Shown piece by piece: positions 19,149-21,703 of a stretch of 35,822 bases of DNA; the first letter of the stretch is position 1; each line of letters opens with the position of its first letter. The notes under the pieces were generated by a model. The model worked only from the letters and a program-made list of their open reading frames with translations, ran no database searches and had not been told where the DNA came from. The position numbers and the translations under genes were made by a program. This DNA is from a virus: the UHGV virus genome UHGV-1355336. One strand, 5' to 3'.

Positions 19149-19781
19149 CGAGAATTATGTTCGTTCTAAATCATGGTTATTGTATTACAGACACTTGACT
19201 ACTGTTGAAACATCAGATTCTAGTGCTTCAATTTGTGCTCTATTAGCTTGGGTCGCCATACCATAGATAGTGTAACTCTTATGCTGCAGCCTACTTAAAG
19301 GGCATCCCTCATGGTTTATTATTGCTGCAAGAGTATTACCATCTTTGACATTTTGAACTCTCTCGAAAGTAGCCACATTTGTGAACAGATGAGGATGTGT
19401 ATTTAACAGGTCATCCGTGATTCTTTTGATCTCTTCTGCATGTGATTTGAATGCTTTTGCTGCATCACTTTCATTAGTTCTTGAGCGGTTTTGTACGAAA
19501 AGGTGTAGTTCAGGTAGTTCGATAAGGTTTTGCTTTGCTTCTTTGTTGAAATCTAAGAACATTTCATCTTGTTCTGACTTGTCAATAGACACTCCATAAA
19601 TAAGTTTAACAAGGTTTTTTATTCCGCGAATTGATGCAGCATCGGCAGTGCAAGGGATAATTATTCTATTTGCCGCGACTACTCCCAATTCTGTGTAGCT
19701 GGCAAAACTTGGATTACAATCAATAAAAAATGTTTTTGCTCTGTCAGAAATGTTTTTATCGGCTTCAAAAGATGCTATTAG

Positions 19782-20976
19782 GGAAGGTGCGAACAAGTTC
19801 CTGATATGAGATCATCATATTCATCCGGAGCGCATCCCAGAGGGACATCATGAGCCATCAACTCACCTTCGCCGATAGTGAATTCAGCACTAAGCGCCGT
19901 CAGACCCGAAAAGAGATTTTCCTCTCCCGCATGGAGCAGATTCTGCCATGGCAGAATATGACCGCTGTCATCGAGCCGTTTTATCCCAAGGCGGGCAATG
20001 GCCGACGGCCCTATCCGCTGGAGACCATGCTGCGTATTCACTGCATGCAGCATTGGTACAACCTGAGCGACGGTGCCATGGAAGATGCCCTGTACGAAAT
20101 CGCCTCCATGCGCCTGTTTGCCCGATTATCCCTGGATAGCGCCCTGCCGGATCGCACCACCATCATGAATTTCCGCCACCTGCTCGAGCAGCATCAACTG
20201 GCCCGTCAATTGTTCAAGACCATCAATCGCTGGCTGGCCGAAGCAGGCGTCATGATGACCCAAGGCACTTTGGTGGATGCCACCATCATTGAGGCACCCA
20301 GCTCTACCAAGAACAAAGAGCAGCAACGCGATCCGGAGATGCATCAGACCAAGAAAGGCAATCAGTGGCACTTTGGCATGAAGGCCCACATTGGTGTCGA
20401 TGCCAAGAGTGGCCTGACCCACAGCCTAGTCACCACCGCGGCCAACGAGCATGACCTCAATCAGCTGGGTAATCTGCTTCATGGTGAGGAGCAATTTGTC
20501 TCAGCCGATGCCGGCTACCAAGGAGCGCCACAGCGCGAGGAGCTGGCCGAGGTGGATGTGGACTGGCTGATCGCCGAGCGTCCCGGCAAGGTAAAAACCT
20601 TGAAGCAGCATCCGCGCAAGAACAAAACGGCCATCAACATCGAATACATGAAAGCCAGCATCCGTGCCAGGGTGGAGCACCCGTTTCGCATCATCAAGCG
20701 GCAGTTCGGCTTCGTGAAAGCCAGATACAAGGGGCTGCTGAAAAACGATAACCAACTGGCGATGTTATTCACCCTGGCCAACCTGTTTCGGGTGGACCAA
20801 ATGATACGTCAGGGGAGAGATCTCAGTAAAAACCGGAAATAACGCCAGAAATGGTGGAAAAAATAGCCTAAATAGGCTGATTCGATGTGTTTGCGGGAAA
20901 AAAATCGGCCCAGATCCGCGAAATTTTAATCAGCGAGTCTGCTTGGGAAGAAATGACCTGCTTATTCGCACCTTCC
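19782..20976 (+). mobile_element. IS5-family insertion sequence, 1195 bp, 16-bp terminal inverted repeats, 4-bp TTAG target-site duplication
   Basis: IRL GGAAGGTGCGAACAAG at 19782; IRR CTTATTCGCACCTTCC ending 20976; TTAG at 19778-19781 and 20977-20980. Confidence 0.9.
19850..20842 (+). CDS. IS5-family DDE transposase
   Basis: 330 aa, [37 protein letters not shown]...; very close to recalled InsH except at the C-terminus. Confidence 0.9.
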
Positions 20977-21703
20977 TTAGATCTACCAGCAAAGATCGGC
21001 TTTTCTTCCATGCTTCTTTTACTGGGGATGAGCCAATGTGAGATATTAAGCGTGAACAGATATCAAGATCGACATCACCAGGAAGAATATATAAGTTCTC
21101 TGGCATTTTTGTATTAACATCATGGGCTCGTACAAAGTAAGAAGATTCATTTCCTAAACGAGACAAAGGAGATTTGCTAAAACGCTCCTTGATATAACCT
21201 GCGATTGTAACATTTCTGTCTCGCAATTTATTTAGATTTTCTTCCCCGGTACCATTGCCACCAAGAATAATTTCTGAAACGTTTGATTGAGGGCATGAGT
21301 CAATAACCACAACATCTTGATCCGGATGAGATATAGCAAACTCAACGGCAAGATTATATGTAAGAAAAGTTTTTCCTACACCACCTTTGTTGTTCCATAC
21401 TAAATATTTTGTATTGGTGGAAATCATATCTGCTACCCCATCTGTCGCTTCAGTACGTTCATTAATCATTATCGTATCCTGTTGTATAGAATTGTCTATT
21501 ATTTATGTTTTATTTTGGTTTTTTTTGTGTTAGTAACGCACCCAAAGATAACATATGGTCTTTATCTTTTCTTACTTAGGGTAACAGCTCAGTGTTAATC
21601 CATTTTTATGGACCAATGTGCCAAATAAAATTTGTATAAAGATTTTCTATCCTTATCTTTTATCATCTGTGCTCGTTTGCTTTAACGATTGCTAGATGCC
21701 TAA

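Follow-up and report, generated by a model that had tools for sequence, protein, structure and literature searches.

Several temperate phages carry cargo between the repressor gene and the left operator (OL), on the repressor strand, that protects the lysogen from unrelated phages; examples are RexA/RexB of lambda, BstA of BTP1, and remAIN of Gifsy-1 (strain 14028s). RexAB and remAIN are multi-gene systems; BstA, encoded by one gene, is described as having a KilA-N-type domain. Here, we analyze the viral genome UHGV-1355336 (35,822 nucleotides; this whole stretch is hereafter called the window), in which a single gene for a ParA-type ATPase occupies the same slot and is split by a copy of the insertion sequence (IS) ISKpn26. 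The window family thus differs from RexAB and remAIN as a single ParA-type ATPase gene, and from BstA, which it resembles in gene number, in the type of protein encoded. Its closest described relative is gipd474 of Salmonella Typhimurium. We propose that the window gene is the Escherichia coli ortholog of gipd474, a prophage defense cargo gene that would have been nulled by ISKpn26, and we put the probability of this overall explanation at roughly 0.85.

The gene gipd474 (STM474_RS13505, 1086 nucleotides, WP_000368620.1) was described as the single cargo gene of the Gifsy-1 immunity region in S. Typhimurium 4/74 (Bosma, Noireaux, and Bowden, Appl Environ Microbiol 2025; PMC12724215). In that study, deletion of gipd474 restored plating of phage Felix O1, and on LT2 or E. 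coli K-12 cells expressing it from a low-copy plasmid, Felix O1, Alf5, and T4 plated about five logs less efficiently, with T7, SP6, LPST153, S16, Jbel, and VpaE1 not affected. Growing lysogens of Salmonella 4/74 transcribe the gene strongly, and the encoded protein is a ParA/MinD/Soj-like ATPase with GGVGKT at residues 29 to 34; a post-adsorption block was only tentatively suggested (PMC12724215). Homologs, defined there by at least 70% identity and at least 70% coverage to GiPD474, adjoin repressor/cro/cII modules and fall into three clades, comprising Salmonella and Escherichia (I), Klebsiella and Enterobacter (II), and Pantoea, Yersinia, and Providencia (III). The gene family is already known, then, and its defense function already published. 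Our literature search for other ParA-like defense proteins returned this paper alone, and Vassallo et al. 2022 make no mention of a ParA-type system.

In the window, the gene is present as two pieces on the minus strand, separated by an element that the initial annotation had described as a 1195-bp IS of the IS5 family with 16-bp inverted repeats and a TTAG duplication. This description holds in every point: the two inverted repeats match at 15/16 positions when the right one is read as its reverse complement, and the product of the one transposase open reading frame (ORF) of the element scores 367 bits against the NCBIfam model NF033581 (IS5 family), whose cut-off is 140. The family assignment is far beyond chance. 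We removed the IS together with one TTAG copy (19782-20980) and fused 21469-20981 to 19781-19185, which restores, as had been anticipated, an in-frame ORF of 1086 nucleotides encoding 361 amino acids, with the insertion point after D163. Coordinates of all features are collected in Table 1. The allele of the window is, judged from its reading frames, a null allele and an expected pseudogene, because the 5' fragment, which holds the Walker A motif, reads into the IS and ends as a truncated product, and the 3' fragment, which holds Walker B, lacks a native start codon. The gene had accordingly been called inactivated, and this call stands. Despite the disruption of the ATPase gene, cI, cro, and the operators are untouched.

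Table 1. Positions of the features discussed in the text. Coordinates refer to the window unless a locus is named.
Feature	Position	Strand	Remarks
OL	18874..18909		CTACTAAAAGTAG at 18874 and CAACAAAAAGTAG at 18897, 23-bp spacing; overlap leftward PL-like promoter
Terminator-like hairpin	19130..19149	-	8-bp stem, 6 G-C pairs; 36 nt past the ATPase stop codon
3' part of the gipd474-like gene, codons 164-361 and stop	19185..19781	-	Walker B FFIDCNPS, PCTADAASIRG, NRSR, KDGNTL
Target-site duplication TTAG, left copy	19778..19781		Original target, counted within the gene
ISKpn26 (IS5 family)	19782..20976	+	1195 bp; transposase opposite in orientation to the split gene
Left terminal inverted repeat (IRL)	19782..19797		GGAAGGTGCGAACAAG
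IS5-family DDE transposase ORF	19850..20842	+	330 aa
Right terminal inverted repeat (IRR)	20961..20976		Reverse complement = GGAAGGTGCGAATAAG
Target-site duplication TTAG, right copy	20977..20980
5' fragment as present	20930..21469	-	Runs into the IS; 179-aa truncated ORF
5' part of the gipd474-like ParA-family gene, codons 1-163	20981..21469	-	Walker A KGGVGKT (residues 28-34), D57 CPQ motif
CI-type repressor gene (HTH_3 + Peptidase_S24)	21704..22408	-	234 aa in the E. coli 789 annotation; mechanical ORF to 22465
Right operator (OR)	22447..22482		Two CTATTTTAAGTAG operators, copies at 22447 and 22470, 23-bp spacing; between cI and cro
Cro-like gene (YdaS-type HTH)	22515..22778	+	Divergent from cI
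CII/CP76-type regulator (YmfL family)	22807..23391	+
Hairpins upstream of the ATPase gene in other alleles	L010 4853-4997, L003, L002 (Klebsiella); L011 787-937

The restored protein is 93% identical over 349 to 354 residues to two S. Typhimurium proteins (P0133 and P0126) that fall in the same 90% cluster. With these cluster members standing in for WP_000368620.1, it falls by proxy within the published homolog definition, and its own homolog list reproduces the three published clades. It further shares with GiPD474 the length of 361 amino acids, the position of GGVGKT at residues 29 to 34, the ParA/MinD/Soj-like fold, and a solitary place beside a repressor/cro/cII module. The two differ in their surroundings, the window copy lying in an argU-type E. 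coli prophage with an S24-type CI, and the Salmonella allele following a Gifsy-type repressor that has the helix-turn-helix (HTH) domain only; the 93%-identical alleles retrieved from IMG/VR have such Gifsy-type flanks and lie behind a 155-aa HTH-only repressor. They differ also in that the window copy is split by ISKpn26 and non-functional. We consider this by-proxy orthology secure, and on sequence evidence the window gene is very probably a defense gene knocked out by ISKpn26.

At the level of protein family, the prediction of an interrupted ATPase with a deviant Walker A motif proves accurate: the motif reads NNKGGVGKT and is of the ParA/MinD type, its signature and P-loop lysines being K28 and K33, respectively. 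Searches with the reconstructed protein, which the initial annotation had suggested for both profile and defense-system databases, returned ParA-type matches on the profile side, namely, Pfam AAA_31 (2.5e-16) and CbiA, and PHROG 164 ("ParA-like partition protein") at 7e-47; on the defense side, PADLOC-DB v2.0.0, a release older than the GiPD474 paper, holds no model for it. Its sole PADLOC match, to Drt5 (E 0.007, 13.6 bits), is spurious. An AlphaFold2 model was computed from an alignment of 34 homologs whose first row is the cluster representative P0001, 93% identical to the window protein, and reaches a mean predicted local distance difference test score of 85.2 and a predicted template modeling score of 0.87. 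The protein combines the deviant Walker A pattern KGGxxK[ST] with a ParA fold and in this way falls within the ParA/MinD superfamily. According to the model, the C-terminal segment to residue 361 forms the usual ParA C-terminal elements, the remaining approximately 100 residues consist of insertions and a disordered N-terminal tail, and there is no separate effector domain, be it nuclease, membrane, or other. Across an alignment that covers 55 to 93% identity, the nucleotide-binding residues K28, P-loop G30 to K33, D57 (DxCPQ), and D184 (Walker B FFIDCNPS) are invariant. So are several motifs that appear to be specific to the family: WNNKGG, SExxLGGNGxG, GDxDLDxCS, PCTADAASxRG, NRSR, KDGNTL, and YxIYGxxTQAN.

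A ParA fold in a phage genome raises the question of partition, and the initial annotation had listed partition beside exclusion and defense as possible roles of a lysogen-expressed factor. SopA of N15 and ParA of P1 are precedents, and the window protein might similarly aid the segregation of the prophage or of an episomal form of it. Compared with type Ib ParA proteins (Soj/ParA, McdA, pSM19035 delta, pNOB8 ParA), however, it is longer by about 100 residues through insertions, has invariant motifs of its own, and comes without a ParB, McdB, or centromere partner. In NCBIfam, it gives only sub-threshold matches to ParA, MinD, BcsQ, and ArsA, and against the partition model ParA_partition (NF041546) it scores 48.9 bits where the cut-off is 180, and on these sub-threshold matches we rejected the partition reading. 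Neither a ParB gene nor a centromere-like repeat array lies beside the gene in the window, in E. coli 789, or in the other contexts examined, and the canonical partition ParA with adjacent ParB and centromere that would have spoken against the earlier interpretation is not what we find. In addition, the prophage is integrated, its integrase adjoining tRNA-Arg, homologs in Aggregatibacter and Electrothrix are solitary chromosomal inserts, and the ortholog has a demonstrated defense phenotype (PMC12724215). A partition role is therefore highly improbable, and of the three roles named earlier, it is defense that our results support.

The position of the gene fits this assignment. It lies directly downstream of the CI-like gene on the same strand, as first noted, across an A+T-rich spacer of 234 nt, and it ends at a terminator-like hairpin ahead of OL, again in keeping with the earlier description. 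We located the two operator regions by a module common to both ends: the OR operators overlap a PR module, TTGCAA-N17-CATCAT, and the outward-strand 23-mers, TTTGCTATTTTAAGTAGCATCAT at PR and TTTGCTACTTTTAGTAGCATCAT at PL, differ at two positions and are each preceded by a TTGnnn hexamer. From the matching operators and 23-mer module at both ends, we take the left pair to be OL/PL and the right pair OR/PR. Between them the ATPase gene lies inside the immunity region, in the cI-to-OL interval, which is the rexA-rexB slot of lambda and had been recognized as such in the initial annotation.

This slot is kept by many relatives. The gene immediately follows the repressor gene, in the same orientation, in Klebsiella phage ST11-VIM1phi8.2 (83% identity) and Pseudomonas phage phi297 (38% identity). 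For 71 IMG/VR loci, we determined the nearest upstream ORF by script and ran Pfam scans on 20 representative ORFs; at least 15 different CI-type repressors (HTH_3 plus Peptidase_S24, or HTH only) precede the gene, at distances of 60 to 370 nt. By our tally, the repressor-adjacent slot is occupied in about 47 of approximately 67 evaluable loci, and in nearly all of those at or above 79% identity. It is shared in part by the subfamily at 35 to 38% identity. In IMG/VR loci of the 35 to 36% subfamily (L142 to L149, L156 to L159, L163, and L165), the place upstream on the same strand is taken not by a repressor but by a 281-aa protein without a Pfam match or by a DUF3024 protein, and these neighbors could be partner genes or reflect different cargo arrangements.

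Outside phages, the gene is solitary in every context examined, and no ParB-like or other partner is conserved across these contexts. A homolog lies near HicAB in an Acinetobacter prophage; another is found with ParE, RhuM, and an integrase in a Campylobacter island; a third, in Azospirillum, adjoins Cas9-Cas1-Cas2, RhuM, and IS1595; and in Aggregatibacter and Electrothrix the gene forms a single-gene chromosomal insert between housekeeping genes. In Azospirillum sp. BE72 (L015, 1-6038), the homolog by the type II CRISPR-Cas locus is 59% identical and has a small DUF6471 gene ahead of it, in a setting that looks like a defense island. Among species-representative genomes, homologs at 35 to 60% identity occur in Burkholderiales, Gallionella, Cytophagales, Planctomycetes, Kiritimatiellia, Akkermansia, Spirochaetia, Oscillospiraceae, and archaeal metagenome-assembled genomes.

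The strikingly constant position of the gene directly behind many different repressors would also be expected if the protein mainly modulated the lysis-lysogeny switch or the induction of its own prophage, phage resistance being a side effect. ParA proteins such as Soj, which regulates transcription and DnaA, are able to act as regulators, and RexA, which occupies the same slot, has a second role in biasing the lambda switch (PMC11077077). Against this stand the homologs away from repressors (near HicAB in Acinetobacter, in the Campylobacter island, by Cas9 in Azospirillum, and as single-gene inserts), as well as the protection seen when the protein is expressed alone in phage-free K-12 and LT2 (PMC12724215). 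Prophages with disrupted alleles, like that of the window, also keep an intact cI/cro module. We consider switch modulation improbable as the main role, and defense remains the function that we propose for the intact gene.

As to the event that disrupted the gene, the element matches E. coli plasmid copies annotated as ISKpn26 with 100% identity from end to end, and near-identical copies number in the thousands on plasmids of Klebsiella, Escherichia, and Enterobacter. ISKpn26 is an already known element. With 1195 bp, 16-bp inverted repeats, a 4-bp duplication of the YTAR type (TTAG), and one DDE transposase, the window element is an ordinary copy at a new site, with no notable difference. Its G+C content is about 55%, compared with 37% for the interrupted gene. 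The source would most likely have been a resistance plasmid, and entry at a CTAA/TTAG site after codon 163 would have left Walker A and Walker B in separate pieces of the gene.

Intact alleles, whose absence anywhere had been named beforehand as an argument against this interpretation, are common. The search for them combined a megablast of 18850-22900, and of the reconstructed locus, against 5426 complete E. coli genomes. In many chromosomes, both flanks are contiguous and 100% identical, with a matched span of 2852 bp, that is, 4051 minus 1199. The gene is present in 71 of the 5426 genomes and uninterrupted, at coverage level, in all 71; with both queries, no IS-disrupted allele was found among these 5426 genomes. 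The restored protein corresponds to WP_021514790.1 in E. coli 789 and matches P0121, "MULTISPECIES: ParA family protein [Enterobacteriaceae]," exactly, an entry with 771 contigs. Neither WP_021514790 nor WP_000368620 appears in the supplements of PMC12724215.

Other disrupted alleles exist. E. coli GCA_027979845.1 carries an independent knock-out by an IS3-family element at gene nt 637/638; on its contig JAPMDB010000001.1 (L020, 1-568), the IS3-family end abuts gene nt 638, where the contig breaks, and is 99% identical to annotated IS3-family transposase ends. Four separate read-set assemblies (L021, L023, L024, and L025) have in common a 1-nt deletion in an A6 run (gene nt 646 to 651), and one further read-set assembly (L022) has a G deletion at gene nt 597; the single-base deletions in these five read sets may represent genuine slippage alleles or else errors in sequencing. 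In the Klebsiella clade, the allele of cluster P0047 has an in-frame stop that leaves ORFs of 91 and 257 aa; this allele (L019, 3698-4774) is part of a rac-like (RecE) prophage, where it closely follows an HTH-only repressor. Such independent disruptions would be expected if loss were selected, for instance because the ATPase is costly, auto-toxic, or blocks a co-resident phage or plasmid. However, the complete E. coli copies are uninterrupted in all 71 cases at coverage level, the homopolymer frameshifts are possibly sequencing errors, and chance is sufficient to account for the insertion, since IS5-family insertion at YTAR sites is widespread and ISKpn26 very abundant. We regard selection for the insertion as unlikely, and an ordinary ISKpn26 insertion into the gipd474 ortholog is the explanation that we retain.

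On the whole, our results support the interpretation first given to this locus. In general terms, we propose that gipd474-type genes would be single-gene anti-phage cargo of temperate phages, placed between a CI-type repressor and OL/PL and expressed in the lysogen. Several points weigh against this explanation or parts of it. The orthology is by proxy only, through S. Typhimurium members of the 90% cluster, length, motif position, and context, and phage protection has been shown for the Salmonella protein, being predicted from orthology for the E. coli allele. With regard to expression, the 234-nt spacer between cI and the gene is not conserved between clades, and in an alignment of repressor-to-ATPase spacers across clades, only the ribosome-binding region is conserved, with no shared promoter or operator. 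We also observe terminator-like hairpins with T runs only some 35 nt ahead of the ATPase start codon in Klebsiella-type and Salmonella-type alleles. With hairpins this close, the gene has no space for its own promoter, and expression may depend on attenuated read-through of the repressor transcript. The family is furthermore 55 to 60% identical across phyla, which is unusually conserved for an arms-race protein and would also fit a housekeeping-like activity. As to mechanism, the lack of a PADLOC model likewise counts against us, and the mode of action is one that we infer, DNA binding being putative.

The ATP-binding apparatus of the protein is of the ParA type and complete, a partner gene is absent, and the ortholog is active alone in two host species (PMC12724215). 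An intact protein would thus be expected to act as a ParA-type ATP switch, forming an ATP-sandwich dimer, probably DNA-bound, that is triggered by, or captures, a phage-specific factor after adsorption. Replication or development of the phage would then be blocked by sequestration or mislocalisation, and not by an enzymatic effector or degradation. Sequestration is favored by the absence of an effector domain of any kind (nuclease, membrane, or other), and a phage-specific factor by the close relationship between sensitive and insensitive phages. This dimer-switch sketch is tentative. Somewhat more doubtful is a broader possibility, in which GiPD-type proteins would be the first immune proteins to consist of a ParA-type positioning ATPase alone, capturing or mislocalising phage DNA or protein on the nucleoid in an ATP-dependent manner, with repeated knock-outs reflecting cost or a clash with co-resident mobile elements, and the family forming a pan-bacterial defense module. 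If true, the family would be far wider than the Enterobacteriaceae described so far, spanning many phyla at 35 to 60% identity with some matches in archaeal metagenome-assembled genomes.

The DNA of the window is from E. coli, and the host prophage is a lambdoid element of a type whose counterpart in E. coli 789 sits at argU/intD. In that IS-free counterpart, the prophage is integrated at tRNA-Arg (argU)/intD and carries yfdP-yfdT-type left-arm genes. Left of the integrase, the window (1-14288) holds tail-type and host-like genes, with E. coli matches annotated as ompT, porin, alpha/beta hydrolase, and others, and E. coli 789 has fimZ and tRNA-Arg instead at the corresponding side. The prophage therefore seems to be placed in a different or composite neighborhood in the source strain. 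We additionally observe a strongly structured segment on the minus strand at 18255-18440, at the end of an ORF-poor leader of about 430 nt running from PL toward yfdP. It consists of a 13-bp hairpin followed by UCUUUUU, which is terminator-like, and, after this, a branched loop closed by a 25-bp stem, with a minimum free energy of -80.9 kcal/mol (z -6.9 versus shuffles) and no Rfam match. Given that an N gene is not obvious in the prophage, this segment could be a terminator or an antitermination target. In the PL leader, where we considered a put-like antitermination RNA, folding is not significant, whether of the whole leader or of its remainder (z -1.3). Near the ATPase locus, Rfam gives no match, either for the whole window at gathering threshold or for 18200-19200 at E up to 1. 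The only two gathering-level matches in the window are IS009 at 9671-9869 (213.9 bits), near the tail-fiber region, and the small RNA STnc100 at 31344-31532 (114.5 bits), in the late region.

What the present analysis adds to the published study is that the family reaches beyond Enterobacteriaceae, that the repressor-adjacent slot is kept across at least 15 immunity specificities and down to 38% identity, in phi297, and that its proteins have a ParA fold and nothing else. This last point makes the mechanism a worthwhile target, and natural null alleles such as that of the window are ready-made controls for such work. For annotation, a "ParA family protein" of this kind in RefSeq corresponds to a validated prophage defense gene, here to be annotated as an IS-inactivated pseudogene. 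A lysogen of the window prophage is predicted to be without GiPD474-type protection.

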